Made by a program: the position numbers and the translations under genes. From the NCBI GenBank assembly GCA_951812855.1, contig OX638337.1:660001-692000 (forward strand): DNA of 32,000 bases, written 5' to 3'. This DNA comes from an uncultured Lentisphaeria bacterium. GTDB taxonomy: Bacteria > Verrucomicrobiota > Lentisphaeria > JABSQK01 > JAJFLO01. Positions 171 to 30,801 of the stretch are shown in pieces; the stretch's first letter is position 1, and each line of letters begins with the position of its first letter. The notes beneath the pieces were generated by a model. The model ran no database searches. It saw only the letters and a program-made list of their open reading frames with translations, and was not told the origin of the DNA.

Positions 171-533
171 TTATAATAAGGTTACAATGACATTGGTCGT
201 TCTAATTATGACTAATAATTCATTGAGCAGTTTATAAAACCGCGTGTTGCCCAGTTCACCAATTTCACCTGCACCAAATTCATATTCTTTACTAATCGCT
301 GTATTCTCGACAGCAATTGATACAGATGAAAAAACCTTATCCTCCCCTTCATCATATTCCATACCCTGGATATCGAAGGACATATCATAACTTTCCGGTT
401 CTTTTATCTGGTCACAGCCTTCTATGTCAATTGACAGATGGTGATCAGAAAAGGAGTCCATTAACAGTTTTTTCAATTCAGAATAATTAATATCAATTTC
501 TTTTACATCTATAAATGCGGCGATTTTGATCAT
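171..533 (-). CDS. hypothetical small acidic protein (120 aa)
   Basis: Intact ORF in the track, Asp/Glu-rich (e.g. YDMSFDIQGMEYDEGEDK). It lies 37 bp downstream of ilvE on the same strand. No motif recognised. Confidence 0.5.
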   Translation of the reverse strand: MIKIAAFIDVKEIDINYSELKKLLMDSFSDHHLSIDIEGCDQIKEPESYDMSFDIQGMEYDEGEDKVFSSVSIAVENTAISKEYEFGAGEIGELGNTRFYKLLNELLVIIRTTNVIVTLL

Positions 534-570: not shown

Positions 571-1587
571 CTACACGTCGGTTAACCAACCATGATTATC
601 AGGAAGTTCACCAAATTGAACAGCACGGACTTTTTCATACAAGTGTCCTAAAACCGGACCGAATCCAGTTTTCGGACCAACCTCAATAATTCGGTCACCG
701 CGTTCGATTCGATTAACTGGTGTAATGACAACTGCTGTGCCACAGGCCCCAACTTCAACTAAATCCTGTATTTCATCAAATTGAATGGGACGTTCTTCTA
801 TTTTCATTCCTGATTCTTTAGCAAGTGTCATTAATGATTTGTTCGTAATACTCTTCAATATCGAATTTGATTCAGGTGTGATGTAGGTGCCGCATTTCGT
901 AATAGCAATAAAATTTGATGTTCCAAATTCATCGATAAAACGGTTTTCTTTTGCATCCAGATATAAATTGATCGGATAGCCCATTTCCTGTGCGATCTTT
1001 CCGGGTTCCAAACCGGCCGCATAATTCCCGGCAACCTTTACCTGCCCGACACCGTTTGGAGCAGACCTGTCAAAACCGTCAATGACCACTGCACTGACCG
1101 GTTCAATTCCTCCCTTATAATAGTCGCTGACAGGCAGCACAAAAATTATAAAGGTATATTCCCCTGCCGGTTGAACGCCGATACGCGGTCCTGAACCAAA
1201 TAATAACGGTCTGATATATAACGAACCTCCGCTTCCATATGGCGGGACGTACTCAAGATTCTCACGGACAATTCGCCTTACAGCGTTCATGAACATCTCT
1301 TCTGGAATGGCAGGCATCAATATGCGTTTTGCCGTTCTCTCCATACGTCTGGCATTCTCTTCAACACGGAATATTTTTACCTTGCCGTCTTTACAGGTAA
1401 ATGCTTTTAATCCTTCAAAGGCTGCTTGTCCATAATGAAGTGCAGTGGCGGCAATATGTATGTTAAGATACGGATCCTCTTGAAGTTCTCCGCTATCCCA
1501 GCAACCATTTTTCCAGGTATAACATATATGGCTATTCGTATCCATATATGAAAAACCCAGTGATTGCCAATCAATCTCTTTATCCAT
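571..1587 (-). CDS. ilvE: branched-chain amino acid aminotransferase (fold-type IV PLP enzyme)
   Basis: 338-aa ORF whose length and sequence fit long-form BCAT. Matching segments: LHYGQAAFEGLKAF, YIRPLLFGSGPRIGV, VKVAGNYAAG, GTSNFIAI, GACGTAVVITPV. Confidence 0.9.
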   Translation of the reverse strand: MDKEIDWQSLGFSYMDTNSHICYTWKNGCWDSGELQEDPYLNIHIAATALHYGQAAFEGLKAFTCKDGKVKIFRVEENARRMERTAKRILMPAIPEEMFMNAVRRIVRENLEYVPPYGSGGSLYIRPLLFGSGPRIGVQPAGEYTFIIFVLPVSDYYKGGIEPVSAVVIDGFDRSAPNGVGQVKVAGNYAAGLEPGKIAQEMGYPINLYLDAKENRFIDEFGTSNFIAITKCGTYITPESNSILKSITNKSLMTLAKESGMKIEERPIQFDEIQDLVEVGACGTAVVITPVNRIERGDRIIEVGPKTGFGPVLGHLYEKVRAVQFGELPDNHGWLTDV

Positions 1588-1860: not shown

Positions 1861-2406
1861 ATGATTTTCACGATTGCCGGAATTACCTTTGCCGTTCTAA
1901 TTATTTCAGCAGCTTTCAGTGTTTGGAAGATCTTTCCTAAAAATAAAGATTTATGGCGAATTATTCCTCGAGAAAAACGATTCGGCTCAGTGCTGGGGTT
2001 TATCTGCTTAATTTGGTCTGCTTATCATACCTTCCCCATCTTTGAAACAACTGCTCCTCAAGTCAGGCTTATGGTTTTGTCCGCGTTGGTTATTGTCATT
2101 ACTTTTTTATCATTTGATCTAATGGATTTCTTATTTACCCGGGCTTTGGGTGGATTCCTCTTACTGCTTGTTAACTGGTTATTGCATCAGGCGTTCGTTC
2201 ATCACACCGTATTCCGTCCTCTTTTCTCGATGTTGTGTTACATATTCGGAATATCAGGGATAATCATGATTGCCGCACCTTATCACTTCAGGGATTTATT
2301 AGAGAAAATCAGTCATGACTGCCGATGGAGATTATTTACATCAACGGTACTCGGCGTCATTGGCTGTATTGTACTTTTAATTTCAGTATCTCCCTATGTC
2401 AGGTAA
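1861..2406 (+). CDS. hypothetical polytopic membrane protein (181 aa, about 5 hydrophobic segments)
   Basis: Intact ORF with strongly hydrophobic segments. Its 3' end overlaps the rsmG start by 11 nt, suggesting co-transcription. No family recognised. Confidence 0.55.
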   Translation: MIFTIAGITFAVLIISAAFSVWKIFPKNKDLWRIIPREKRFGSVLGFICLIWSAYHTFPIFETTAPQVRLMVLSALVIVITFLSFDLMDFLFTRALGGFLLLLVNWLLHQAFVHHTVFRPLFSMLCYIFGISGIIMIAAPYHFRDLLEKISHDCRWRLFTSTVLGVIGCIVLLISVSPYVR

Positions 2407-3825: not shown

Positions 3826-3847
3826 TATTAATCCGTCTGGCTCTGGT

Positions 3848-4519
3848 CTATATCGAAATAGCCAAGTAAACATCAAAGCCGGGAACAGGCGGCTGGACTT
3901 CTTCCCAGGTCTCTAAAATCCACTCATTATTTTTATCAATCATGACTCGATATTTACCGTCTTTTCCAACAAGTCGGTCATTGTATTGGCGTTCCAGGCC
4001 GGATACACCGACTTCATTTTCTTTTTGGACTGATGTTCGACCGATAATACGCTGAATATCCATTCTCTCAATAAGTTTTTCTCTTTTGAAGTTACTTTTT
4101 ACGTAAAATTGTGGATTTTCCTTCATAATCGGTTCTAATACGACTAACTCGGCAGCGGTAAGATTTGATTTGACTAAAACAATACTGTTTGCAGAAAAAT
4201 CACCTGACATGGACTGGTTTGATTTGATCAGTCTTTGCACCTTTCGAATATCTTCGGCGGCGGTATCTCGTCCTGTATTGACTTTATAATAGAGGGAAAA
4301 TTTTCGAACAGACCGGGCGATGAGTTTTCCATTACGATCGAGCAGTCGTCCGCGCAAAGCAGGTATTGTTCCGGTTTTCCAGGTTTTCCCCTTAAAATAG
4401 TTTACAAAATAATCGGTATCAGCCACAGTTATCTGATAACATCGTAACAAAATGATACCTGTCCAGATAAAAAATAAAATGATAAAAAAATTTATTCGTT
4501 TTTTTGCAAATAAATTCAT
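3848..4519 (-). CDS. membrane-anchored class-B PBP N-terminal (dimerisation/'pedestal') domain protein with no transpeptidase domain
   Basis: N-terminal TM anchor (FFIILFFIWTGIILL). It then aligns with the PBP2/FtsI non-catalytic module: ALRGRLLDRNGKLIA, GVSGLERQYNDRLVGKDG. It ends ...GFDVYLAISI*, where the transpeptidase domain normally starts. No SxxK, SxN or KTG motif. The start overlaps the upstream acyltransferase stop (ATGA). Confidence 0.7.
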   Translation of the reverse strand: MNLFAKKRINFFIILFFIWTGIILLRCYQITVADTDYFVNYFKGKTWKTGTIPALRGRLLDRNGKLIARSVRKFSLYYKVNTGRDTAAEDIRKVQRLIKSNQSMSGDFSANSIVLVKSNLTAAELVVLEPIMKENPQFYVKSNFKREKLIERMDIQRIIGRTSVQKENEVGVSGLERQYNDRLVGKDGKYRVMIDKNNEWILETWEEVQPPVPGFDVYLAISI

Positions 4520-5783
4520 AGCTCACTTTCAGAAGACTCAATACTGCAACCGCGCAACAATTGATACGGATAGATACTCCCGATATTTTGCCACTCATCC
4601 TGCATGTCTTTTGGAACTTCATGAGAAATTTGGTTATGCCAGGATTGAATTCGTTTGAGGGCCTCCTCACTTTTTGCTTTTCGAGAGTTTATTTGAGTCA
4701 ACATTGTATTACTCCCCAATAGAAAAAAAATCGACGTGATAATTACCGCTGAAATAATGGCTCTTACTCTATTTTTTAACAGATTTGCAGATTTACGCTC
4801 AATCCACATGTTAACTGCGTATGAACACCCCAACATTAGTCCCATTATACCCCAGAATACTATATGTTCGTTATATTCATGAAATTTTCTAAACAGAATA
4901 TAACCTATGTTTTGATGGATCAGATACAGCGGGTATGTCAAAATCCCAAGTTTTATCCAATTCAACTTTCGAAAACTACCAAGTTTTCGATCTGCGACCA
5001 TATACATAATCACAAAAAACAACGAGACAATCCCTGCAACAACAAACTCATTGACCCCCATGGCTTTGAGGTTCTCATTAGCAGGCACATCAAAAAATAT
5101 TTCGCAAACTGCGATCACCCAACAACCGCACAATCCAGCCAGTTTCTTAAACGAGCTCCCATCACGCCACAACAGGTAAAATAAAGAACCCGCAATAAAG
5201 TAACACGCATACACATCAATCAAAATAAATCTCACCAATTTCGGAGCCTCCACAAAAGTCATAATGCCAGCAATCACCAACCAACAGTACAGTATATTTT
5301 CGGATCGATGCATTTTCCGTAATGCCAAAACAATACCCACTAAACCATAAAACTTTAATTCGACTTTCAAAGTCCAATACACCCCGTCAATTGAATCAAC
5401 CCCGACAAAACCATGAAGCATAGTCATGTTCACCAAATACTGGAACAGCGTAGCTGAATAATATTCTCCACCGAGGAATAAAATGACCACAAATGTCACC
5501 GTACAACATGCCCAATATGCTGGATACAATCGTGAAACTCTGGAAGCTATAAACTTGCCTAATGACCCACCTTCTACACTCATGAAAATCACGAAGCCAC
5601 TGATCATAAAAAACAGTTCCACTCCAAGGTAGCCATAACACAAAAATGAGGAAAACTGGGTATATGATGGTCCTACCCCCCCCCCCCGTAAGTTTGACTC
5701 CTCACGCAATAGTGAAATAGCACAACTGCCAGAGCAGCAACAAATCTCAACAAGTCAATTTCGTTAACTCTTTCCTTAACCAT
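4516..5783 (-). CDS. acyltransferase family 3 (OafA/OatA-like O-acyltransferase), reading frame interrupted at a G12 tract
   Basis: AGGAG lies 6 nt before the ATG at 5783. That frame gives MVKERVNEIDLLRFVAALAVVLFHYCVRSQTYGGGG, then TAG at 5675-5673. The track ORF 4516-5709 continues in another frame (GVGPSYTQFSSFLCYGYLGVELFFMISGFVIF... with many TM segments). Joined, the two pieces give the full Acyl_transf_3 architecture. One extra G or two fewer G restores a 422-codon ORF. Confidence 0.8.
5676..5687 (-). repeat. homopolymeric G12 tract (C12 on + strand) inside the 5' end of the acyltransferase gene
   Basis: Counted directly: 12 consecutive C at 5676-5687. It sits exactly at the frame break between the two acyltransferase pieces. 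Confidence 0.95.
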
Positions 5784-5852: not shown

Positions 5853-6379
5853 TAATTCAGTAAATCAATATTATTGAGTGTACTCTCAAATAAAAATTAT
5901 GAAATGGCAGTCAATCAGAAGGAATTTGAATGAGCGAAAAAACTGAGGAACCTACGATTTTTATGGACAACAATTCCCCGGGCATTGCATCCGAAGGTTC
6001 GAGTGAACATCATAAAGTTGAAGGCGAAATTCGGGTATGAACCGGATGAATCATTCTGGTAGACAGTAAAGGCAGCAGCAGTCAGGGAAAGCGTCAAAAT
6101 CTGAACTTGCTTAAAGCGAGTAACAAGGTAAGTTATGTGTGAATCTTCTAAGGGTTATTCCGTCTGAAAAACGGAAAAAGACCAGAAAAGACCAAAATTT
6201 AAGGACAATAACAACCAGAAATCACTGCAGGTGGCTGGAAATTTAACCATTGAAGGATAATCTCCAAATGAGATGTTTAGTGCAAACAAAGGTCTCAGCA
6301 TGAAATACAAAGCAGAGATTGATGGTTTAACAGGGCTGCTGCGGAACAAAGATAATTCTTAGAATAATGGGGGAGTAAT

Positions 6380-7223: not shown

Positions 7224-8348
7224 ATGTCATCATCAAAGCAGCAAAATTATACATTAGATCACATTGTTAAATTCGCTGTTATCTCGGGAATTCTCGCTGG
7301 GTTAACCTGGTTATTGGGATATTTAAGTGACGTTTTAATTCCCTTTATCATTGCATTTCTTTTCGCATATTTACTCCATCCAATTGTCTGTTTTGTACAG
7401 AAAAAAATTCCAAATCGTGCACTGGCAATATTTGTCGTTTTATTTGGAGTCCTGGCTCTGGTCATTGGATCGAGTTATATAATCATACCAAAAATCAACC
7501 ATGAAATTTCGCATACTGGAAAACTGCTTAAACGCTTTGTTGAAGATAAAGAATTTGCGGCGAAAGCAACAAAATTTATTCCGCCTAAACTAGTTGAATC
7601 AGTAAAAGAAAGAGTATCAAAGGATAATTTAATTGAACTCATGCAGCAGGAAAAGTTCTGGGTTATTGTCCAGTCAGGATTCAAAAAGGCAGCACCCGGG
7701 GCACTTGATTTATTGTCCGGCACCGCAAGCTTTTTTACGGGAATACTGGGATTATTCATCATGGGTTTATATCTGGTGTTTTTACTGTTAGACTACGAAA
7801 AAGTAAAAAAGGAATGGGAGAGTCTGGTACCCGAGAAACTGCGTGCACCCATTTTTGAGTTTGTTGATGAATTTGATCGTTCAATGAATCGTTATTTCAG
7901 AGCTCAGGCACTGGCTGCCTTCTGCACTGGAATTGTCTTTGCAATCGGATTTACCATCATTGGATTACCAATGGGAATTTTTTTAGGACTGTTTCTGGGG
8001 CTCCTGAACATGGTGCCGTATTTACAAATTGTTGGAATTGTACCGGCGGCGTTGTTGGCCTTTATGAAGTCTCTGGAAACAGGAACGAGTTTCTGGCAGC
8101 TAATGGGATTGATTCTCATTGTGTTTGTAGTTGCACAGATTATACAAGATGTTATTTTAACACCAAAAATTATGGGCGGACTGACAGGATTAAGTCCGGC
8201 AATGATACTGTTATCCATCTCTGTCTGGGGAAAATTGCTTGGATTCCTCGGATTGGTTATCGCAATTCCCATAACCTGTTTAACGTTAGCGTATTATCAC
8301 CGTATATCAGCCTCTCAGAATGACGTAATCAGTGAGTTGGCAGAATAA
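7224..8348 (+). CDS. AI-2E family transporter (PerM/YhhT/UPF0118)
   Basis: 374 aa with about 8 TM segments and the family-typical layout: N-terminal LIPFIIAFLFAYLLHP, a central soluble loop, and a C-terminal half with NMVPYLQ and VAQIIQDVILTPKIMG. Confidence 0.85.
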   Translation: MSSSKQQNYTLDHIVKFAVISGILAGLTWLLGYLSDVLIPFIIAFLFAYLLHPIVCFVQKKIPNRALAIFVVLFGVLALVIGSSYIIIPKINHEISHTGKLLKRFVEDKEFAAKATKFIPPKLVESVKERVSKDNLIELMQQEKFWVIVQSGFKKAAPGALDLLSGTASFFTGILGLFIMGLYLVFLLLDYEKVKKEWESLVPEKLRAPIFEFVDEFDRSMNRYFRAQALAAFCTGIVFAIGFTIIGLPMGIFLGLFLGLLNMVPYLQIVGIVPAALLAFMKSLETGTSFWQLMGLILIVFVVAQIIQDVILTPKIMGGLTGLSPAMILLSISVWGKLLGFLGLVIAIPITCLTLAYYHRISASQNDVISELAE

Positions 8349-8402
8349 CTTATACCAGATAGAAAAACTGGATTTGAACCATAAAATTTTTATGAGGTTT
8401 TT

Positions 8403-9194
8403 ATGGCTGAATACGAAAATCATTTATATGCAATTATTTTCCCGAACCAGGGCCTGATCACATCACAATTAGGTCCCGGAGAATTTGGAAAACATTATGC
8501 AGTTGGAAGTTCTAAACATTTCGACGGGAAAGTTGTCTTTGTTGAAATTGACAAAAATTTGGAAGACGGATTCTTTCCATTAAATGAAATCTGGAAACAC
8601 GTTGTACCCCACGAAGACGGGACACCAAAACGAACAAAATTTGCCGGCAATTATCGAGTCCTCGAAAATATTCCTCTGGATAAATTTAAAGACATGTATC
8701 TGGTTACGGTTGAAGGAAAGACTCTAAAACTCAGTCGATCGAAATACACCATTGACAATGAAAAGGGATTAATCCGGGTTTATCAAATGCTGAATCCAAT
8801 TCAAATGCTGGTTGGAAGTCGACTGGATCAACGGAACTTTGGCGAATATTTTACTCGGGAAAATACGACCAAAGGCTGCCCGACGTTGTGCTACACACAA
8901 GTCAGTCTTGATGTTGCTGAGTTTGAACGAATATACGAAAATGATGAAACCAATTATTTAGTTCTTCCTAATATTCCGAACAATAAGCTGAAGGAATGCA
9001 TTGAGGAAATGAAAATGAATCCAGAAAAAAAGAGTACGACGATTAGTCTGGCCTCTATTTTTCAGGATCTCCATTTTCTAAAATTACGACATGGATTCTG
9101 GATTGCCAGCGGCAATGATCTCATTTTTTATCCGCTTCCCGGTATCAATGAGTTGGAAAACGAATTTTACGACTGGTACCGTTCGACTTTTTAA
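8403..9194 (+). CDS. hypothetical soluble protein (263 aa), no family recognised
   Basis: Intact ORF with GAGG 7 nt upstream of the ATG and coding-like composition. No TM segment, P-loop or metal motif that I can identify. Confidence 0.65.
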   Translation: MAEYENHLYAIIFPNQGLITSQLGPGEFGKHYAVGSSKHFDGKVVFVEIDKNLEDGFFPLNEIWKHVVPHEDGTPKRTKFAGNYRVLENIPLDKFKDMYLVTVEGKTLKLSRSKYTIDNEKGLIRVYQMLNPIQMLVGSRLDQRNFGEYFTRENTTKGCPTLCYTQVSLDVAEFERIYENDETNYLVLPNIPNNKLKECIEEMKMNPEKKSTTISLASIFQDLHFLKLRHGFWIASGNDLIFYPLPGINELENEFYDWYRSTF

Positions 9195-9348
9195 GTATCA
9201 GATCATTAAATTCCGTTTTCCCGGCGTAAGTGTTACTATCTAATTTTTGAATTTCCTCCTGCGGATCATTTGCATTCTATAAATCATAGATTTATGCTTC
9301 TGCTTTTTCTTAAAAAACCGCTTTCTATTTTACGGAGGATTTTTCAAT

Positions 9349-10527
9349 ATGAGCAAAGGTAATCTCGTAGTAGGACAATCCGGCGGCGCCACTGCTGTCA
9401 TTAATCAAACTCTTGTTGGAATTATCCGGCAGGCACAGGCTGAAGAAAAGATCAATCGAATTTTAGGAATGCGATTCGGCATACTTGGATTAATCGAAAA
9501 AAATTTTGTTGATCTTACAGATATGACAGAAGAACAGTTGCTGCAATTAGAACAAACCCCATCAGCAGCACTATGTTCCTGCAGGTACAAATTGCAAGAT
9601 TCAGAAAATGATACCTTACTTGATGCAATCGAAAAAAATGGGATAAATTATTTTACATTGATCGGCGGCAATGATTCTGCAGAGACTGCCTTACACATTT
9701 CAAAACTTGCACAAGCACGCAATATTGATCTTTCCGCTGTTGCACTGCCAAAAACAATCGACAATGATCTCCCTTGTATGGACCACACCCCCGGATATGG
9801 AAGTGTCGCCACATTTATCGGAGCATCAACTCAGGAAGCAGGCCGGGATACTGAAGCAATGCAGCAGGCTGATCCAATAAAAATCATTGAAGTTAAAGGA
9901 CGTAATTCAGGTTGGACAGTTGCCTCATCGGCATTGGGAAAACGAAGTAAATTTGATGCACCTCATTTGATTTATTTTCCAGAACGTCCCTTTGATGAAG
10001 ACACCTTTGTTGAGGATGTCACCAAAGTTTATAAGGACATTGGATATTGTGTTATTGTTATAGCTGAAACCTTAAAAGACAAAACCGGACGATTAGTCGG
10101 TGAACGTAAAGAAGGAATTACCAGGGATCCCTTCGGTCATGCCTATGTAGACAGTGCAGCAGCCTGTTTATGCCGTTTAATTGAAGGTAAATTGGGTGTC
10201 CGTGCACGATATGACAAGCCGGGGACACTGCAAAACAGCTCAATTCGATATATTTCACCCGTGGATCAAGCCGAAGCACAGATGTGTGGAAAAAAGGCTG
10301 TCAGCCTTGCAGCCGGTGGAAAAACAGATGTTATTGTAACATTAGAACGCGAATCAGATAATCCTTACAAATGTACAACCGGTTACGTTCCCATCGAAAA
10401 AATTGCAGGTATCGAAAAATATATGCCTGAAAATTATATCAATGAAGCCGGGAACTTTATCACCCAGGATTATATTGACTATGCAAAACCTTTAATTGGA
10501 AAAATTCCCGAATTTATTCGGCTTTAA
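9349..10527 (+). CDS. pfp: 6-phosphofructokinase family enzyme, probably diphosphate (PPi)-dependent
   Basis: GGAGGA SD. Matching segments are GQSGGATAVIN, GGNDS (Asp where ATP-PFKs have Gly in GGDGS), PKTIDNDL (Lys where E. coli PfkA has Gly) and MDHTPGYGS. Both classical phosphoryl-donor discriminator positions are the PPi type. Confidence 0.8.
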   Translation: MSKGNLVVGQSGGATAVINQTLVGIIRQAQAEEKINRILGMRFGILGLIEKNFVDLTDMTEEQLLQLEQTPSAALCSCRYKLQDSENDTLLDAIEKNGINYFTLIGGNDSAETALHISKLAQARNIDLSAVALPKTIDNDLPCMDHTPGYGSVATFIGASTQEAGRDTEAMQQADPIKIIEVKGRNSGWTVASSALGKRSKFDAPHLIYFPERPFDEDTFVEDVTKVYKDIGYCVIVIAETLKDKTGRLVGERKEGITRDPFGHAYVDSAAACLCRLIEGKLGVRARYDKPGTLQNSSIRYISPVDQAEAQMCGKKAVSLAAGGKTDVIVTLERESDNPYKCTTGYVPIEKIAGIEKYMPENYINEAGNFITQDYIDYAKPLIGKIPEFIRL

Positions 10528-10545
10528 ACACAGGAGATTACATAT

Positions 10546-13188
10546 ATGCCATCCGGATTCACTGATGAATTGGTTGAGATAGAACAACTCGCTGCAGACT
10601 GCCTGAATAATGATTCGGCCGATACAGGAACAGGACCCAATGTGAAATTTCTCGATAACGGCTATGTATTATGCCTGCCGAGAACAAAAGGTGACAGCCG
10701 CTATGTTTATGGTGACGATGGATTTAATTTCTGGATCCATGCCTCTGGATATATGTATGCAAATGAAGGATTGTATTCATTATTCATGCGTCGAAAAGAA
10801 GGTGATGAACCGGTAATATCCTTCTTTGCCGGTCTGCCGAATGAAGACGGCAAAACCTTCACCCGGATATCACTGCTGCCGGTACCAGTCATAGAAGAAT
10901 CTGATGTGTTAATTAAACGCCGTTATACCATTATGAACAATAGTGCGGCCTATTTTTTTACCGAATTCAGTTCAATTAAAAGTGTTGTTCGGATCTCTGT
11001 TGACAAAGCAAATAAAATGATCTTCTCTGTTCATATTGAAAACAAAGGTAATGAAACTGTGTCTATATACACCTCGAGTTACTTCAAACCGTTTTGCAGA
11101 TATGATATTTACGAAAGCGATGAAGACCGTTGGTTCAGCGAAACTATTCTGAATAATTCAGCCGACAATAATGGAGATTTTGCTGCCGGCACCCTGGAGG
11201 TTGCACAAGATGAAGACCGGTTTCATTCGAATACCTACTATGCAGTGTTACGTGGAAAATATACACCGGGGAAAGGGATTCAATTCGTTAATCGGGATAC
11301 AAACACATCACGTCAGAATTTTGTTGGAAACAGCCAACGAAATTTGGGAACGAGCATCGCCTTGAAACGGGGTAAGTTTTCAAAGGACAAATCACTTACA
11401 ACATTTACCGACATCGCAGTATTCAGTGATATAAATTCCTTCAATTTAGCTGAAAACACCGTGTTGCGCTTAGACTACACCTACCAGATTGCACCCGATA
11501 AAGAAACTCGGGATACGGTGGTCAAAACGCCTCTGAATCCCCGGGAAATCGATACAAATATTGCATCAACAACTGACAAAAACAAAACAATGTTGTCCAG
11601 CCTTAATGGAAACATTTCAGGACTGAACAACAGCTTAAATATTAATGAAAAATTTTTCAATGCATTTTTTGATCACTTAAAATACCAGGTATCCGTATGC
11701 GGTCTACTGAAAGGATACATGCAATTAGAACTTCGATCATTAATAGGTATCAGGGATGTTTTTCAGGCACTTGAGGCACTGCAGTATTATCGAACGGACG
11801 AAAGTAGAAATAAAATGATTGAAGCATTGGGTTTTACAATCCCTACCGGTCGATGCGTTCGTCAATATTCACTTCCTCCCGGGGGTTCACAGGCTGGACG
11901 GGCCGATTTACGCCCCTTCATTGACCAGGGAGTATGGGTTATTTCTACAATTCATTCTTATTTACAAAATACCGGTGACAAAGATTTTCTCGAAACTGAG
12001 GTTGGGTATCATGATATTATTGACGAAGGATCTGAAACCATTCTTCCGTCCGATAAGAGAGACAGCGTACTCATGCATATCTTCCGAATCATGGATTATC
12101 TGAATGAGAATCGTGATCACAGCAAAACAAAATTACTGCTTGCCCTTTACGGAGACTGGAATGATGCACTTGACGGTTTAGGCATTGCAAATGATCCAGA
12201 AAAAGATTATGGAACCGGAGTCAGTGTCATGACGACCCTTCAATATTATCAAAACTGCCTGGAAATGATTAAAATTCTAAACTCATTTTATCCGGGGAAG
12301 TATGAAGAAAAAATTAACCAATACCGGGAGACAGCTGATTCCATAGCAGAAAATCTGATAAAGTACGCGGTAATCAGTGATGAAGAGGGGAATAAACGAA
12401 TTGTTCATGGCTGGGGTGATGAACGTTCTTATTTTGTAGGCAGTTTTAATGATCCCGATGGCGTCGCCCGGGATGGTCTGACAAGCTATTCATTTTGGAT
12501 CATTTCAGAAATGTTAGAAAAAACTCCTGAACTGGAACAAACCATTTTAGATGCATTTGAGAGAATGCAGTCAAAATATGGATTAATGACATTTAATCCG
12601 GCATTTCCAAAGGGAACTGAAGGCGTCGGACGTATTCCAAAACTACCCCCGGGAACCGCCGAAAACGGTGCAGCTTACATACATGCAACATTGTTCGCAA
12701 TCTGGGCTTATTTTAAAATGGGCCAACCTCAAAAAGCATGGGATCAGATCGAAAAGATTTTACCATTCACCAATATTCATGACCGCTACACCCACTCCCC
12801 GTATGTTATGCCAAATTCTTATGTATACAATCCTGAAAAAGGACTGGATGGAGAATCAATGAATGATTGGCAGACGGGCAGTTCCAATGTTCTCTTAAAA
12901 ATCATGATCTGGTATGTATTCGGTTACCGCCCGGATTTTGACGGAATCTATATTCAGCCGGCATCCTGGACACCGTTTGAGGAATCAAATTTTTCGACCC
13001 GAAGCAGAGGAAAAGTCATTGAAATAGTCTATAAAAAAGAAAGCACTGCAGATAAAAGAGCCTTCTCCCTAAATGGACAAGATCCAATAACAGGTGACTA
13101 TTCCAGTGCATTGAAAACAAATTACTGTTTTATCCCATATGAAGAATTGAGTGACAAGAATACAATTATGGTTATTGATCCGGGTTAA
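10546..13188 (+). CDS. GH94-like (alpha/alpha)6 glycoside phosphorylase superfamily protein, substrate unknown
   Basis: 880 aa, AGGAG SD, 18 bp after pfp. It has LYGDWNDALDG (the DWND catalytic-Asp motif of cellobiose/chitobiose phosphorylase-type enzymes) and PGTAENGAAYIHAT (the ENGGxYxHA phosphate-binding His motif). The size fits N-terminal beta-sandwich + barrel + C-terminal jelly roll. Confidence 0.65.
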   Translation: MPSGFTDELVEIEQLAADCLNNDSADTGTGPNVKFLDNGYVLCLPRTKGDSRYVYGDDGFNFWIHASGYMYANEGLYSLFMRRKEGDEPVISFFAGLPNEDGKTFTRISLLPVPVIEESDVLIKRRYTIMNNSAAYFFTEFSSIKSVVRISVDKANKMIFSVHIENKGNETVSIYTSSYFKPFCRYDIYESDEDRWFSETILNNSADNNGDFAAGTLEVAQDEDRFHSNTYYAVLRGKYTPGKGIQFVNRDTNTSRQNFVGNSQRNLGTSIALKRGKFSKDKSLTTFTDIAVFSDINSFNLAENTVLRLDYTYQIAPDKETRDTVVKTPLNPREIDTNIASTTDKNKTMLSSLNGNISGLNNSLNINEKFFNAFFDHLKYQVSVCGLLKGYMQLELRSLIGIRDVFQALEALQYYRTDESRNKMIEALGFTIPTGRCVRQYSLPPGGSQAGRADLRPFIDQGVWVISTIHSYLQNTGDKDFLETEVGYHDIIDEGSETILPSDKRDSVLMHIFRIMDYLNENRDHSKTKLLLALYGDWNDALDGLGIANDPEKDYGTGVSVMTTLQYYQNCLEMIKILNSFYPGKYEEKINQYRETADSIAENLIKYAVISDEEGNKRIVHGWGDERSYFVGSFNDPDGVARDGLTSYSFWIISEMLEKTPELEQTILDAFERMQSKYGLMTFNPAFPKGTEGVGRIPKLPPGTAENGAAYIHATLFAIWAYFKMGQPQKAWDQIEKILPFTNIHDRYTHSPYVMPNSYVYNPEKGLDGESMNDWQTGSSNVLLKIMIWYVFGYRPDFDGIYIQPASWTPFEESNFSTRSRGKVIEIVYKKESTADKRAFSLNGQDPITGDYSSALKTNYCFIPYEELSDKNTIMVIDPG

Positions 13189-13286
13189 ATTAAGAATTCC
13201 ACTAATAATTATGCGGTAGAATACGACGAATCTCTGGAGATTTTATCTTTATACACACCTGAATTGAATCTATCAATTTATTTCTT

Positions 13287-13528
13287 ATGAAGAAGAAAAA
13301 ATGCCTTAGCGGAGTTTTACCGAATCCGGGTTTCAGCAGTTATTGGAATTAAATGGAATAACACCAGAATATTCAGAGTTTAAATCACTGTCATCGCAAC
13401 AGACATCAGATCAACTGATTTCCGGTGAACTCGACGCAGCATTCCTTATTACCTCACCAAATGCGAATACATTTAAGAATGTTACCTGTATTGATCAGCA
13501 ACAAAAGACCTGCCTGGAAAATGACTAA
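13287..13528 (+). pseudogene. decayed fragment of a TAXI/NMT1-like periplasmic solute-binding protein
   Basis: Two overlapping short frames. MKKKKCLSGVLPNPGFSSYWN* (13287-13352) and LELNGITPEYSEFKSLSSQQTSDQLISGELDAAFLITSPNANTFKN (13343-13528) together resemble the ...GxxGSGT...LLxxxGI...L..G.lDAaF... core of TAXI-type receptors. Only about 80 residues remain and they are frameshifted. Confidence 0.35.
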
Positions 13529-13600
13529 ACAGAAGGAACTATATCAGGTTATTTAACGACACAGACAACCCCTAGTCCTGCGATAACATAACAAAGATTG

Positions 13601-14566
13601 TTATTTTTCGTACAAAAAACAAGCGGCTTTTTGATGGGTGTTAATCGCTTTTAATACCGGTTTTTCAGCGATGCATTGCACAAACGACAATGGGCAGCGG
13701 TCGCTAAAATGACAGCCTTTAGGGAAATTCAACGGGGACGGGACTTGACCTTCAACTGCATTTAAGCGATCGGTATGTTTTGATAAAGATGGCATTGAAC
13801 TCAGCAAGGCCTTTGTATAGGGATGGGCAGGATTATTAAAAACGTCATTGACAGTACCTTCTTCGACGATATTTGACGCATACATTACAAGTACCCGATC
13901 ACACATTTCCCAAATCACTCCCATATCATGCGTTATTAGTAATAATGAGGTATCGTCATCTGTCATTTCCTCCATTAAATCAAATATCTGGGCCTGTATA
14001 GTTACATCTAAGGCAGTTGTCGGTTCATCTGCAATGATCAGTTTGGGACCTGGCAGTAACGCCATCGCAATCATAACTCGTTGACGCATACCTCCGGAAA
14101 GCTCAAATGGATAGGCATACATTCGTTTTTCCGGATCCGGGATACCAACTTTACTCAGCCATTCTTCACTTATTTTCCATGCATCCTTTTTTGAAATTTC
14201 CTGATGTAAAGTCAACATTTCTACCAATTGTTTCCCCACTCTGTGAAGCGGAGACAGTGCAGTCATGGGTTCCTGGAATATCATACTGATTTCTTCTCCC
14301 CTGATTTTATTTAAGTCATCAAATCCGAGTGACAGGATATCCTGATCTTGAAATAGAATCTCACCATTTTCAATTGTCCCGGCAGGTTCAGGAATTAAAC
14401 GCAATATGCTCATTGCAGTTATTGATTTCCCACAACCGGATTCGCCGACAAGCCCAAGGATTTCTCCTTTTTTAATTTCAAATGAAACATCATTTACAGC
14501 AGCGAGTTCACCTTCGTCTGTATGAAATTTCACCGTTAAGTTTTTTATTTCTAAAAGGTTATCCAT
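13601..14566 (-). CDS. peptide-type ABC transporter ATP-binding protein (OppD/DppD/YejF-like, single NBD)
   Basis: Walker A GESGCGKS, signature LSGGMRQRV, Walker B LIIADEPTTALD, H-loop ITHD. The C-terminal oligopeptide-type extension has HPYTKALL and a Cys cluster CHFSDRCP...C. Confidence 0.9.
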   Translation of the reverse strand: MDNLLEIKNLTVKFHTDEGELAAVNDVSFEIKKGEILGLVGESGCGKSITAMSILRLIPEPAGTIENGEILFQDQDILSLGFDDLNKIRGEEISMIFQEPMTALSPLHRVGKQLVEMLTLHQEISKKDAWKISEEWLSKVGIPDPEKRMYAYPFELSGGMRQRVMIAMALLPGPKLIIADEPTTALDVTIQAQIFDLMEEMTDDDTSLLLITHDMGVIWEMCDRVLVMYASNIVEEGTVNDVFNNPAHPYTKALLSSMPSLSKHTDRLNAVEGQVPSPLNFPKGCHFSDRCPLSFVQCIAEKPVLKAINTHQKAACFLYEK

Positions 14567-24247: not shown

Positions 24248-24952
24248 ATGAAACACCCCATTACTCACTATCTCTTTCAGGGAATCAGGATCCTTCTTAT
24301 TCCCATAATGCTCTGGGTGATTTTGGGATTAATATTGGCAGGATCAAAACTCACATTTTCAATTGGTTATAACCATTCCCTATACTTGGCAGGGATCGGG
24401 TTTTGTTCAGGATTGGTTATTTTTTCGATTAATTCTTCCCCGTTTATGAGATTGTACGTCGCCGGTCATGAACTAACCCACTGGTTGACAGCAAAAGCAT
24501 TTCGCAGACGAACCGGAAGACTTAGAATCGGCAAAGCAGAAGGCAGTGTAAGTGTACAACGTCCCAATATATGGATTATGCTTGCACCATATTTTTTCCC
24601 GTTTTATACCGTGGTTTGGATTTCTGTTATAAAAATTATTGAAATTTGGTATATAGAAACGGGATTGCTGATTGCATTATACCTGGGGACAGGGTTAACC
24701 TATGCCTATCATATTTTTATGACGATGCTTGCACTGTCAAAAGAACAAACCGATTTAAAAATGTACGGTTATTCATTTTCCATGTGTTTAATCATTTTAA
24801 TAAATTTTTTCATTGTATACTGTGGTTTATCCCTTTTTTCAGATAATGTAGAATACAGTGCTACACTATTAAAAAAAACTTATATTTCTCAATGGAACTT
24901 ACTTACTGAATTATTTTTATGGATACTACAGACGCAGATATACAGGAATTAA
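24248..24952 (+). CDS. hypothetical polytopic membrane protein with HExxH (putative M50B/DUF3267-like zinc metalloprotease)
   Basis: 234 aa with multiple TM segments. It has one HExxH (VAGHELTHW) next to a TM helix and a downstream Asp (EQTDLKMYG). The family call is tentative. Confidence 0.5.
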   Translation: MKHPITHYLFQGIRILLIPIMLWVILGLILAGSKLTFSIGYNHSLYLAGIGFCSGLVIFSINSSPFMRLYVAGHELTHWLTAKAFRRRTGRLRIGKAEGSVSVQRPNIWIMLAPYFFPFYTVVWISVIKIIEIWYIETGLLIALYLGTGLTYAYHIFMTMLALSKEQTDLKMYGYSFSMCLIILINFFIVYCGLSLFSDNVEYSATLLKKTYISQWNLLTELFLWILQTQIYRN

Positions 24953-26998: not shown

Positions 26999-27505
26999 AT
27001 GTCAAATCCAGTTATAGCAATTCTCATGGGCAGTAAATCAGACTACGAAAAAATTGAATCTGCAGTATCAATATTAAACAATTTTGATATTAACTATACA
27101 GTCCGGGTAATGTCAGCACATCGAACCCCGGACATTGTAACAGAATTTACTAAATCTGCAGCAGAAAACGGGTATAAAATTATTATTGCTGCAGCCGGTT
27201 GTGCTGCACATCTTGCAGGTGTAACAGCTGCTCACACAAATTTACCGGTAATCGGCATTCCCGTTCAGGGAGGTGCATTTCATGGTATGGATGCACTTCT
27301 GTCAACCGTACAAATGCCGGGAGGAGTTCCGGTAGCATCAATGTCTGTCGGTACCGGCGGGGGTAAAAATGCCGCACTGTTCGCGATAAGAATTCTAGCT
27401 CTTTCTGATGCTGAAACTGCAGAGAAACTAAATCGTTTTACAGTTAAACAAAGAGACGCCGTAATTAAGTCAGATGAAGACTTACAAAACAAATTAAATA
27501 AATGA
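26999..27505 (+). CDS. purE: 5-(carboxyamino)imidazole ribonucleotide mutase (class I PurE)
   Basis: VAILMGSKSDYEK, SAHRTPD (class I has Arg here; class II has Lys) and AAAGCAAHLAGVTAAHTNLPVIGIPV. AAGGA SD. Confidence 0.9.
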   Translation: MSNPVIAILMGSKSDYEKIESAVSILNNFDINYTVRVMSAHRTPDIVTEFTKSAAENGYKIIIAAAGCAAHLAGVTAAHTNLPVIGIPVQGGAFHGMDALLSTVQMPGGVPVASMSVGTGGGKNAALFAIRILALSDAETAEKLNRFTVKQRDAVIKSDEDLQNKLNK

Positions 27506-27569: not shown

Positions 27570-28175
27570 ATGCATATTTACGAACTTAATGATTCGTTTA
27601 CAGATCAACTTGTCAACGATATTTCACAACGACTAAGAAACGGGGAGGTTGGTATCATACCAACAGAAACAGTTTTTGGATTAATGTGTCTGTATGACAA
27701 TCATGAAGGACAACAAAAAATATTTGAAATAAAGAATCGGGACAAAGAAAAAAAATTACAAATTTTAATTGCGTCGATCACACAATTGGAGTGGATCAAC
27801 ATCAAACTGAATACGGATCTCCAGCACTTAACAAGTGTCTTCTGGCCGGGTCCATTAACACTTATAATAGAAAATAATCGTTGTGATGAACTCGGAGTCC
27901 GAGTACCAAATCATCGATTTGTACAAGCTATAATTAATACAGTAGAAAAACCCCTGGCAGCAACAAGTGCAAATCTTTCAGGGAATACCCCGTCAGACAG
28001 CTATAATCAAGAATTCAACGATTTAGATAACGAACCAGATTTTATGGTAAAATGTGAATTAGACAGTCATCAAGCGTCAACAATTATCAGATTTCATAAT
28101 AATAAACTGGAATTAATAAGAGAGGGTGCAATCATGTTCGATTCTATATTACAAAAATTTCCAAATCTTTTATAG
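27570..28175 (+). CDS. tsaC: L-threonylcarbamoyladenylate synthase (YrdC/TsaC family)
   Basis: IIPTETVFGLMC, WPGPLTLI, GVRVPNH and LAATSANLSGN; 201 aa, single-domain YrdC type. Confidence 0.85.
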   Translation: MHIYELNDSFTDQLVNDISQRLRNGEVGIIPTETVFGLMCLYDNHEGQQKIFEIKNRDKEKKLQILIASITQLEWINIKLNTDLQHLTSVFWPGPLTLIIENNRCDELGVRVPNHRFVQAIINTVEKPLAATSANLSGNTPSDSYNQEFNDLDNEPDFMVKCELDSHQASTIIRFHNNKLELIREGAIMFDSILQKFPNLL

Positions 28176-28267: not shown

Positions 28268-29542
28268 ATGTTCAGCCCTCAGGATTCAATAACTGCTTTA
28301 GAAATTGGAACAGCTTCAATAAAAGTCTTAATGGGTAAACCAAAAGAAGATGGATCGATAGCAATCATCGGATATGACGAAATTACGACTCTAAACAGAG
28401 TCATAAAAGGTGATGTAATCAATGTTCCTGCCGTTGCTGAATTATTGGGCCAGGTCCTCAATAACGTTGAAGCGGTATCAAGAGAAAAAATTCGTAAATT
28501 ATATGTTGCTGTAACCGGAAGTCATATAAAATCTATAAATGTCATTGGCAGTGTCCCCATTACCTCTCCAGATAGAATTATTACAAACAACGACATTGTA
28601 GAAGCTACCCGAAATGCCAGAGAATATAACCTTCCTTTAGCACAAAAAGATATTCATACCTATCAACGAACCTATATTATCGATGACACCCTGCGAGTAA
28701 GTAATCCAGAAGGTATGGCAGGAAATAAACTTACTGCCGATATTCATGTTATATATGGGAATTATAATAAAATTCAGACGATTTGCAGCATTATACATAA
28801 TGTTTTAGGCGCACCTGCGGATGATATTGCGTTTACCGGAATCGCTGATTTTTATGGACTGCCTGTTAATAACGATCATGCCAAAGGAACACTGGTCATT
28901 GATATTGGTGCAGGTGTAACAGAATATGTTGTTTTTTACAATGATGGATGTATGCATTCCGGTCAAATCACGGTAGGTTGTGAACATATAGCAAATGATC
29001 TGTCGATTGGATTGAGGATTCCGATCGATCACTGCAGAGAACTTTTAAAGCAATTAAAACAACAGGGTCTATCACTTATAGATGATCCAGACTCTGAAAG
29101 AGATATAGAAGTTCAAATGTCATTACAGCCTGCAAGAGTTTTTAAGGAATCAATTCCAAAACAAATTATCACACTGCGTTTAAATGAATTGTTTAAACTC
29201 ATAAAAGACGAATTGTCAACGTCATTCATCGATGAAGACCTGGATATGACTAAACTGCTGGGTGCCGGTATTATTTTATGTGGAGGAGGAGCACTTATTC
29301 CTGATATAAAGGTTTTAGCAAAATCAATTTTTAATTTTCCGGTAGAAATTGGATACCCACTCAATGTCAGCGGCGTCGGCAAAGAGATTAATTCACCTAA
29401 ATATATTACTCCCGTTGGATTACTTTATCTCGGACACCGGTTAGACTTATTGGAAAAGGAATCGACACCTACCTTTCGTCAAACAGTCAATGTTGAATTA
29501 AATAAACTCAAAAATTTAACACTGAAAGCATTTCGTTTTTGA
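28268..29542 (+). CDS. ftsA: cell division protein FtsA
   Basis: Actin-fold FtsA pattern: ALEIGTASIKVLMG, LVIDIGAGVTEYVVF and GIILCGGGALIPDI. The C-terminal amphipathic tail is LNKLKNLTLKAFRF. It is immediately upstream of ftsZ. Confidence 0.9.
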   Translation: MFSPQDSITALEIGTASIKVLMGKPKEDGSIAIIGYDEITTLNRVIKGDVINVPAVAELLGQVLNNVEAVSREKIRKLYVAVTGSHIKSINVIGSVPITSPDRIITNNDIVEATRNAREYNLPLAQKDIHTYQRTYIIDDTLRVSNPEGMAGNKLTADIHVIYGNYNKIQTICSIIHNVLGAPADDIAFTGIADFYGLPVNNDHAKGTLVIDIGAGVTEYVVFYNDGCMHSGQITVGCEHIANDLSIGLRIPIDHCRELLKQLKQQGLSLIDDPDSERDIEVQMSLQPARVFKESIPKQIITLRLNELFKLIKDELSTSFIDEDLDMTKLLGAGIILCGGGALIPDIKVLAKSIFNFPVEIGYPLNVSGVGKEINSPKYITPVGLLYLGHRLDLLEKESTPTFRQTVNVELNKLKNLTLKAFRF

Positions 29543-29613: not shown

Positions 29614-30801
29614 ATGGAAGAAGATAAAATTCAATCCGCTATTATTGCAATTGGCGGAAGCGGAGGAAAGATACTTGGTAATATTGCTGAATCAGATGAA
29701 CTGAGGGACATTAAATTGATTCATGTCGACACAGATGAACACGATTTAATAGATAACAAAAATGTTCATAGTTTATTATTAAAAAATGATTGGACAGACA
29801 ATCAAGGCTGTGGCGGAAATGCAGTTACCGGTGAAAATGCTGCAGGTGAAAATATTGACTTAATTAAAGATCAAATCGAAAATATTAATTCACTTTTTGT
29901 AATCTCAGCTTTAGGACGGGGAACGGGCTCCGGGGCCGCAGTTCGCATCTCCAGATTAATAAAGGAAACAAAACTCCGTTCACTCTTTTTTGTAACCCTG
30001 CCGTTTTCGTTCGAAGGGAAAGAACAACAACAAACAGCAAATAATTCTTTGAGAAAGCTTCGGAAATCAACAGATATAGTCATTCCAATTCCCAACGAAT
30101 TAATATTCGACAATTGTCCAGAAGACAAGAAGGCACTTGATGCATTTGATACCGCAAATTCTATTCTGGCTCATTGTATCATTGGTATGTCAGAGTTGAT
30201 CCGCTTTCGAGGAATAATTCCAATTGATTATAGCAGCATTAAACAGGCTTTTAAAAATAAGGACGCGATCTGCTCATTTGGTATAGGCCGGGCAAATGGT
30301 GAAAATAAAATTACAGAAGCAGTCGATGACTTGCTAAAATCACCGATGCTTGGATATCCTGATTTTGTAAATAATGCTGATGTTGTCATCAGCTCTCTGA
30401 TTGCAGGCCAGGATCTCAATATTGGTGATATGAAAAAATGTCTCGAAATTCTTAACTCAAAATTAAATACATCAGTAAAAACAATTATCGGAGCAAATAC
30501 ATTCGCAAATTCGAATGAAAACATTAAAATTTATATGTTATCGGTCCAATATCAAAAAACGAGTTTCAATGATAATTCATCAATTGTTAAAGCTGTAAAA
30601 TATTCGTCAGATCCAAAAAAAAATCGGCGACGAAAAAGGAATGAGCAGTTATCCAACGAGCAAATGGCATTACCATTTATAGATGAAGGACTTTCATTAG
30701 GAATTTTTGCTGAAGTCAATGCTACAATTCACCATGATCAAAATCTTGATATACCAACATTTCAACGACATGGAATCAGTATTATGTTGGACAAAAAATA
30801 A
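29614..30801 (+). CDS. ftsZ: cell division GTPase FtsZ, highly divergent
   Basis: Collinear with E. coli FtsZ: IAIGGSGGKI (GGGGGN box), HVDTDEHDL (NTDAQAL), SALGRGTGSGAA (GGGTGTGAA), LPFSFEGKEQ (KPFNFEGKKR), IPIPNE (IPND), GIIPIDYSSIK (T7 loop NVDFADV). A basic linker and the C-terminal peptide LDIPTFQRH (DIPAFLRK) follow. Confidence 0.8.
   Translation: MEEDKIQSAIIAIGGSGGKILGNIAESDELRDIKLIHVDTDEHDLIDNKNVHSLLLKNDWTDNQGCGGNAVTGENAAGENIDLIKDQIENINSLFVISALGRGTGSGAAVRISRLIKETKLRSLFFVTLPFSFEGKEQQQTANNSLRKLRKSTDIVIPIPNELIFDNCPEDKKALDAFDTANSILAHCIIGMSELIRFRGIIPIDYSSIKQAFKNKDAICSFGIGRANGENKITEAVDDLLKSPMLGYPDFVNNADVVISSLIAGQDLNIGDMKKCLEILNSKLNTSVKTIIGANTFANSNENIKIYMLSVQYQKTSFNDNSSIVKAVKYSSDPKKNRRRKRNEQLSNEQMALPFIDEGLSLGIFAEVNATIHHDQNLDIPTFQRHGISIMLDKK

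Follow-up and report, generated by a model that had tools for sequence, protein, structure and literature searches.

A transmembrane-anchored FtsI/PBP2 pedestal protein without a transpeptidase domain in an uncultured Lentisphaeria bacterium: family, gene context and possible function

A 32,000-nucleotide stretch of DNA from an uncultured Lentisphaeria bacterium (GenBank assembly GCA_951812855.1, contig OX638337.1, positions 660,001 to 692,000 of the forward strand; hereafter the window) encodes a protein of 223 amino acids that consists of an N-terminal transmembrane (TM) helix and the non-catalytic "pedestal" module of penicillin-binding proteins of class B (bPBPs), the group that includes FtsI and PBP2, and that lacks the transpeptidase domain. 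The protein belongs to a family in which this short form is shared, and whose distant subfamilies are encoded directly upstream of genes for SEDS proteins of the FtsW type. We consider it somewhat probable that the pedestal protein acts as a non-catalytic SEDS and divisome partner, with peptide cross-linking done elsewhere. The gene and the parts of its product are as follows.

3848..4519, minus strand: pedestal-only gene (transpeptidase-less FtsI/PBP2 homologue), product of 223 amino acids with a TM anchor; from the open reading frame (ORF), PF03717, TIGR03423, an AlphaFold2 (AF2) model and Foldseek
4424..4495, minus strand: N-terminal TM helix, approximately residues 9-32, INFFIILFFIWTGIILLRCYQITV; a hydrophobic stretch, with an AF2 helix over residues 3-33
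3917..4366, minus strand: pedestal (PBP_dimer) domain, residues 52-201; Pfam match, with four bPBP N-module motifs retained
3851..3883, minus strand: junction motif PGFDVYLAISI, ahead of the stop codon; aligns to PGQDVVLTL of Thermus thermophilus PBP2

The ORF begins with an ATG at 4519 and ends with a stop codon at 3848-3850 on the minus strand. In an earlier reading of this DNA, made from the sequence alone, the product had been described as a stand-alone, TM-anchored bPBP pedestal without a transpeptidase domain, and Pfam, NCBIfam, a search of the Protein Data Bank (PDB) and the AF2 model all agree with that description. The motifs quoted in the sequence-only reading are all present: ALRGRLLDRNGKLIA occupies residues 54-68, GVSGLERQYNDRLVGKDG residues 171-188, and PGFDVYLAISI residues 213-223, the C-terminal end of the protein. 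The profile search proposed at that time was run and yielded a match to PF03717 (PBP_dimer; 58.8 bits, E 1.2e-15, cut-off 24.4) in which residues 52-201 align with profile positions 2-176 of 180, and the same Pfam scan gave no match to the transpeptidase profile PF00905. Similarly, NCBIfam model TIGR03423 (pbp2_mrdA) aligns with residues 8-222 over positions 2-234 of 593, that is, over its N-terminal module only, at 76.3 bits, below the equivalog cut-off of 455; the spoVD model reaches 48.9 bits, below its cut-off of 688. A phmmer search of the PDB with the window protein returned bPBPs only. On these sequence comparisons, homology of the protein to class-B PBPs is well beyond chance.

The window protein stops where the catalytic half of its homologues begins. 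Its PGFDVYLAI aligns to PGQDVVLTL at residues ~207-215 of T. thermophilus PBP2, where the transpeptidase domain starts, and its C-terminus lies 7 residues past the junction Asp. A transpeptidase domain hidden in another frame or downstream can be ruled out, as had been argued earlier from the spacing of the genes. The pedestal stop codon is separated from the end of a convergent CPBP ORF by only 22 bp (bases 3826-3847), so that a hidden catalytic domain has no room. Moreover, we searched the window and 13 related loci (L001-L013, up to +/-10 kb around the pedestal gene) by tblastn with P0179, a 428-amino-acid bPBP entry that carries both domains and whose transpeptidase domain covers profile positions 2-172 of 299. 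The window and 12 of the 13 loci matched this entry in its residues up to 244 only, and L007 gave no match; nowhere in the window or the 13 loci was a counterpart of the transpeptidase half found. Because the transpeptidase domain was searched for and is absent, the protein falls outside the definition of a bPBP and is referred to here as a bPBP derivative. The stop codon of the ORF upstream and the start codon of the pedestal gene overlap in an ATGA at 4516-4519, which places the pedestal gene in an operon.

The AF2 model built from a 74-sequence alignment (pLDDT 94.7, pTM 0.77, no segment below 50) supersedes an earlier model from 5 sequences that had a pLDDT of 57 and weak Foldseek scores. 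In it, residues 3-33 form one long helix at the N-terminus, the TM anchor, and a mixed alpha/beta pedestal comes next. In a Foldseek search of the PDB, bPBPs were found throughout the 50 matches listed, and the model resembles bPBP pedestals only. The matches include T. thermophilus PBP2 of the RodA-PBP2 complex (6pl5_B, E 2e-13), Pseudomonas aeruginosa FtsI of the FtsWIQBL divisome core (8bh1_B, E 1.2e-12) and Yersinia pestis PBP2 (query-normalized TM-score 0.65, root-mean-square deviation 3.3 A over 198 columns).

The pedestal-only family and its gene neighborhoods

A word-indexed search returned four homologues of 73, 67, 42 and 35% identity, all of 223-230 amino acids and with full query coverage; in each, PVPGFDVY and a further 3-5 residues form the C-terminus. 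When 1.84 billion representative proteins were searched with a profile, 2200 matched at E<=1e-3; of these, 264 reached E<=1e-10 and 75 reached E<=1e-30. The best 150 of the 2200 all have 131-291 residues, nearly all 200-260 and mostly 220-250, and align end to end, and we set the size of the family at a minimum of 150 clusters at 50% identity. Among 174 collected members (195-300 amino acids), the median length is 234 amino acids and the median tail past the junction motif 14 residues. PF03717 was found in 74 of 74 diverse members and PF00905 in none of them, and the bPBP models of NCBIfam match these 74 at their N-terminal part only. The nearest two-domain protein scored 73 bits, against at least 96 bits for members of the family.

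Whether the short form is old or a recent truncation had been a question of the sequence-only reading, and three comparisons bear on it. Orthologues proved equally short, with the same end point, down to 22% identity. Syntenic orthologues all have 223-236 amino acids, and no full-length bPBP stands at the syntenic position in any of the related loci examined. Codon-level dN/dS is 0.088 between the window gene and that of L001, 0.078 between the window and L004, and 0.11-0.12 between L001 and L004, the least saturated pair (dS ~1.1-1.2), values of ~0.08-0.12 that indicate purifying selection. The shared architecture and a dN/dS of ~0.1 together show that the shortened form is old and under purifying selection.

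Residue conservation was measured over the 74 members (22-74% identity to the window protein). R56, R146, G160, E176, L183, G185 and G214 of the pedestal are listed as invariant. Taken together, R56, G57, A68, W69, R146, G160, G171, G174, E176, L183, G185, G188, G214 and D216 are invariant or near-invariant, and the N-module motifs tested (RGxIxDRNG, R...G, GxxGxExxxxxxLxGxxG and GxDVxL) are invariant or nearly so. In addition, the juxtamembrane R8 and W19, which lies inside the TM helix, are at least 90% conserved in both of the clades described below. Conservation of a Trp in a single-pass helix over such a range of identity suggests that it reflects a conserved intramembrane partner.

The gene neighborhoods of the relatives fall into two sets. 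The window, L001, L003, L004, L007 and L009 make up one clade (the window's clade), and L008, L010, L011, L012 and L013 represent distant subfamilies. The order mraZ, small bitopic protein (90-100 amino acids), pedestal gene is found in L001, L003, L004, L007, L008, L009 and L011. It is identical in L001/L006, L004/L005 and L007; L003 (35% identity) shares it as well, and there a frameshift divides the small gene in two, on a contig whose name suggests ~2x coverage; in L009, mraZ and the pedestal gene flank a gene for a protein of 94 amino acids. In the closest relatives, where the bitopic protein has 90 amino acids, stops and starts along this order overlap, and the pedestal gene is followed, as in the window, by a convergent block of CPBP, gidB and a gene for a 181-amino-acid protein.

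In all five loci of the distant subfamilies, a SEDS (PF01098) gene lies immediately downstream of the pedestal gene. L008 reads mraZ, small ORFs, pedestal, FtsW, and L011 reads mraZ, an 81-amino-acid ORF, a 101-amino-acid ORF, pedestal, FtsW; in L010, L012 and L013 the pedestal gene is followed by FtsW with 4-bp overlaps. (L010 is a contig of 133,525 bp, near-identical to a 135,452-bp contig that carries P0158.) The linked SEDS proteins score 244.7 bits as FtsW, a little above the 228.7 bits that they reach as RodA. They keep the Asp equivalent to D297 of Escherichia coli FtsW, a putative catalytic residue (PMC8765783), within the motif LPL-x-[H/Y]-[S/N]-D-S, as well as a SYGGS motif. The genes rsmH and mur are absent from the pedestal-gene clusters of the relatives.

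The window itself contains two further division genes.

28268..29542, plus strand: ftsA; PF14450 (FtsA) and PF02491 (SHS2_FTSA)
29614..30801, plus strand: ftsZ; PF00091 at 100.4 bits and PF12327 (FtsZ_C) at 37 bits

Their presence implies that the source organism has an FtsZ-type divisome. The dcw cluster (genes for division and the cell wall) is scattered, with the putatively ftsI-derived gene 24 kb from ftsA and ftsZ and on the opposite strand, and no mur, ftsQ or ftsW gene is found in the 32-kb window. Judged by gene order, the window gene appears to be the FtsI-position gene of a broken-up dcw cluster and not a spare copy. The ftsA-ftsZ pair is preceded by purE (26999-27505) and a Sua5/YrdC-family gene (27570-28175), not by ftsQ, ddl or mur.

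In the sources, members of the family carry the label "hypothetical protein" or else "cell division protein FtsI/penicillin-binding protein 2". P0172 comes from a Victivallaceae bacterium, relatives of the linked FtsW bear the names Lentisphaerae bacterium GWF2_44_16, GWF2_49_21, Lentisphaeria and Kiritimatiellaeota, and L001/L006, the sole locus from the scan of genome contigs, is "MAG: Verrucomicrobia bacterium OFTM167", a metagenome-assembled genome (MAG). The few organism names available thus place the family in the Lentisphaerae/Kiritimatiellae/"Verrucomicrobia" part of the PVC (Planctomycetes-Verrucomicrobia-Chlamydiae) group. A scan of metagenome loci with a pattern from alignment A4 had no relative among its matches.

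Proposed function and its alternatives

Activation of SEDS proteins runs through a contact between the bPBP pedestal and extracellular loop 4 of the polymerase, and in the RodA-PBP2 complex RodA is activated by PBP2 in this way (PMC8765783). According to passages of a study of FtsW, its polymerase activity requires the cognate bPBP, and the requirement for the TM domain of the bPBP is examined in the same work (bioRxiv 10.1101/358663). bPBPs also have essential roles as proteins besides catalysis (PMC9426605). With this background, we propose that the ancestor of the family was the bPBP-encoding ftsI gene of the dcw cluster, which would have lost its transpeptidase domain long ago and been retained as a protein of 220-250 amino acids made of TM helix and pedestal. 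The TM helix would pack against the membrane domain of a SEDS protein of the FtsW type, and the pedestal would contact extracellular loop 4 and thereby license or activate the polymerization of glycan strands. Divisome signals would reach the pedestal via the small bitopic protein in the FtsL position, with FtsA and FtsZ upstream of it. Cross-linking would be carried out by another bPBP, a class-A PBP, an orphan transpeptidase or an L,D-transpeptidase, or would be reduced at that site.

A product of TM helix and pedestal only, its apparent place in the ftsI slot, and the coupling of its gene to a catalytically intact SEDS gene in many relatives together make a non-catalytic SEDS activator the best explanation. 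We infer that the protein physically binds and activates a SEDS protein, and that such a partner is encoded in the window's own genome. The role of scaffold or regulator of SEDS proteins, as opposed to enzyme, which the sequence-only reading had suggested, is thus supported, whereas the decoy role named there as another option is less well supported than that of a cognate partner, since pedestal and SEDS genes share an operon in five of five distant loci.

Several observations weigh against this proposal. In the window's clade, a SEDS gene adjoins the pedestal gene in none of six loci, and none turned up anywhere in the sequence covered around them. In a rough neighbor-joining tree, the FtsW-adjacent and the window-type contexts form separate clades of 78 and 33 leaves, and the window falls with L001, L003, L004, L007 and L009 in the 33-leaf clade. 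In a profile search with the neighboring FtsW proteins, the best 120 of up to 8000 candidates included none on a contig of the same length as the window's. The small bitopic protein has no match in Pfam, NCBIfam or PDB profile searches and no detectable similarity to FtsL, so that it is called FtsL-like here for its position and topology. Finally, if full-length bPBPs are also encoded in these genomes, a regulatory or competing role would be as plausible as cognate activation.

Such a role would be that of a negative regulator or decoy, which competes with a full-length bPBP for a SEDS protein or for activators of the FtsQLB or MreC type and so damps or times wall synthesis. A complete pedestal with a TM helix should, to judge from the model, be able to fill the bPBP site on a SEDS protein. 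The pedestal gene, however, appears to occupy the place of ftsI at the head of the dcw cluster, its translational coupling to the SEDS gene in five loci is the pattern of a stoichiometric cognate partner and not of a conditional inhibitor, and there is no second bPBP gene beside the five linked SEDS genes; we therefore regard a decoy as unlikely. About as improbable, in our view, is a split bPBP, in which a separately encoded transpeptidase docks non-covalently on the pedestal protein and rebuilds FtsI. Precedents are found in passages of a 2025 survey (PMC12516126), which describe split or rearranged architectures and orphan transpeptidase-only proteins, among them a pedestal-glycosyltransferase fusion adjoining a transpeptidase-only gene in Bosea lupini and a pedestal-only gene adjoining a transpeptidase-only gene in Waddlia. 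In those cases, as described in these passages, the two halves are adjacent, whereas in none of the loci examined does the present family stand beside a transpeptidase-only gene, and it makes up a coherent clade that has an operon structure of its own. Neither tblastn nor precomputed Pfam matches revealed a transpeptidase sequence in the window or the 13 loci, and the family ends cleanly past the junction motif, with no conserved docking tail.

The lack of an adjacent SEDS gene in all six loci of the window's clade would fit an alternative in which the SEDS protein has been lost there and the pedestal serves as a polymerase-independent divisome scaffold that links the bitopic protein, FtsA/FtsZ and the envelope. 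The fragmented dcw cluster, with ftsA and ftsZ alone 24 kb away, points in the same direction, as do the 1.95-Mb length of the source contig, which would mean a small genome if the contig is the whole chromosome, and the origin of relatives from a MAG with the isolate code OFTM (a code that could point to coral as the source) and from assemblies that are highly fragmented. Against it, lack of adjacency is not absence from the genome, and the TM Trp and all pedestal motifs are shared with the FtsW-linked clade and kept under strong purifying selection; a scaffold of this kind also appears improbable to us. The remaining alternative, that the gene is a functionless deletion relic or pseudogene, had been raised in the sequence-only reading and draws on the fact that the protein corresponds to the N-terminal 40% of a normally two-domain enzyme and on the frameshifted upstream gene, so that there is some decay at the locus. 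It is hardly credible and is rejected here: the same architecture and end point recur across all of the clusters counted above, dN/dS is ~0.1, the operon structure is conserved and the predicted fold is confident.

Neighboring genes in the window and in related loci

Upstream of the pedestal gene, the window differs from its relatives, and downstream it resembles them.

4516..4809, minus strand: homologue of the ~90-amino-acid bitopic protein (FtsL position); tblastn with the L001 protein
4810..5783, minus strand: Acyl_transf_3 gene, inserted where relatives have mraZ; PF01757 at 76.9 bits
3079..3825, plus strand: convergent gene for a CPBP (Rce1-like) intramembrane protease; PF02517 at 57.6 bits

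The 90-amino-acid protein of L001 matches window positions 4785..4540 with 62% identity (tblastn, E 1.6e-33). In the window, this homologue forms an in-frame fusion with the 3' end of the acyltransferase ORF (ORF 4516-5709, minus strand), with a possible start of its own at ATG 4809, whereas it is a separate gene in the relatives. In an alignment, the small bitopic proteins form one family, with a TM helix, a further helix and then the motifs E-x-P and P-x-x-L-L.

Similarity of the window to L001 and L004 starts only at ~4797. The acyltransferase gene seems to begin with the ATG at 5783, which is preceded 8 nt upstream by AGGAG; its N-terminus reads MVKERVNEIDLLRFVAALAVVLFHY, and it is frameshifted in a tract of 12 G at 5676-5687 (minus strand; 12 C on the plus strand). 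With 12 G, a TAG follows right after the tract, and with 13 or 10 G the frame reads into ORF 4516..5709; the frameshift may stem from a sequencing error in the homopolymer, or may mark a pseudogene or a phase-variable switch. The only trace of mraZ in the window is a sub-significant tblastn match at ~5979-6071 on the minus strand (E 0.2-0.7). MraZ proteins from four relatives give this same weak match with their residues 38 to 50-69, and the segment may be a decayed mraZ remnant.

The convergent arrangement of the CPBP gene is conserved in L001, L003, L004 and L007. Four window ORFs have no Pfam match above threshold: 8403-9194 (plus), 24248-24952 (plus), 1861-2406 (plus) and 171-533 (minus). 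The 181-amino-acid membrane protein encoded at 1861-2406 and the 120-amino-acid ORF at 171-533 are syntenic in L001, and the former is also syntenic in L004 (181 amino acids) and apparently in L007 (185 amino acids). No tRNA or Rfam element was found in the window, and scans of it for promoters and terminators were at chance level only.

Some of the related loci carry additional genes beside the pedestal gene. A conserved protein of 220-246 amino acids is encoded directly upstream of the pedestal-FtsW pair in the Victivallaceae-type loci L012 (9217-9957) and L013 (9298-9960, both plus strand); it has an apparent N-terminal signal peptide (by eye), no significant NCBIfam match and no Pfam hits, and could be a further component of the module. 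In L011, a small ORF between mraZ and the bitopic gene (9040-9285, plus strand) contains two Cys pairs, CSWC and CRQC, which are reminiscent of a zinc ribbon. L008 has extra small ORFs at the same place (725-916 and 1297-1452, plus strand), and a 51-amino-acid ORF of this locus has a precomputed match to PF13597 (NRDD). The pedestal-FtsW pair of L010 is flanked (7245-9926 and 11810-14179, plus strand) by two Ser/Thr kinases, the second with a dCache sensor domain, and by a protein that matches HATPase_c faintly, which hints at control of the module by phosphorylation in this lineage.

Relation to known systems and significance

The pedestal protein combines features of the two best-known bPBPs. 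With FtsI (PBP3; P. aeruginosa FtsWIQBL, 8BH1) it shares the single N-terminal TM helix followed by a pedestal with the N-module motifs and, in the loci L008 and L011, a place downstream of mraZ and the small bitopic gene, with ftsW next; unlike FtsI, it has no transpeptidase domain and none of the SxxK, SxN and KTG motifs, and rsmH and the mur genes are missing from its cluster. With respect to PBP2 (MrdA; T. thermophilus 6PL5, E. coli 8TJ3), TIGR03423 is the best profile match in 73 of 74 members and 6pl5_B the best Foldseek match, but the pedestal gene appears to lie in the dcw head (mraZ) and not in an mreBCD-mrdAB context, and the catalytic domain is missing. Staphylococcus aureus PBP1 is described as both an enzyme and a division regulator, and cells without the protein differ in phenotype from cells without its transpeptidase activity (PMC9426605). 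The concept of a bPBP role beyond transpeptidase activity is shared with the present family; PBP1, however, is full-length and its transpeptidase activity is essential, whereas here the domain has been removed and the short form fixed across a lineage.

The architecture as such has already been counted: the passages of the survey cited above (PMC12516126) give 2572 pedestal-only proteins (PF03717 without PF00905) in InterPro, from many phyla including the PVC group, with the same architecture as the window family. In the passages compared, these proteins are listed without families, contexts or functional analysis. Our literature search returned no described transpeptidase-less FtsI family linked to FtsW in Lentisphaerae-type or PVC bacteria, and the lineage family with its FtsW linkage appears undescribed, as we found no paper on it. 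The finding also matters for annotation, because members are labeled either as hypothetical or with the name of a penicillin-binding enzyme.

SEDS-bPBP pairs are core wall-building machines of bacteria and targets of beta-lactams. In current models, the bPBP has two tasks, the cross-linking of peptides and, through its pedestal, the allosteric activation of the SEDS polymerase. Since the cross-linking half has been removed while anchor and pedestal persist and the gene stays linked in an operon to the polymerase, the family resembles a natural separation-of-function experiment. It would offer a minimal system for studies of SEDS activation, and with it comes the question of which enzyme introduces the septal peptidoglycan cross-links in this group.

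Peptidoglycan is present in Kiritimatiella glycovorans, which withstands ampicillin, carbenicillin and penicillin G at 100 mg/l or more and is D-cycloserine sensitive, and ornithine was found in hydrolysates of Victivallis and Oligosphaera (PMC5148204). The family might bear on the beta-lactam tolerance of the group, and the link to K. glycovorans is circumstantial. We further speculate, as a bolder and rather doubtful extension, that the divisome SEDS polymerase of a Lentisphaerae/Kiritimatiellae-type lineage works with a transpeptidase-free partner, so that septal peptidoglycan would be made without a dedicated divisome D,D-transpeptidase, its cross-links coming from a non-bPBP enzyme or being largely absent. 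If this is true, then septal synthesis in these bacteria would be intrinsically insensitive to FtsI-targeting beta-lactams, and a TM helix plus a pedestal would be the minimal SEDS-activating unit, shown in nature.

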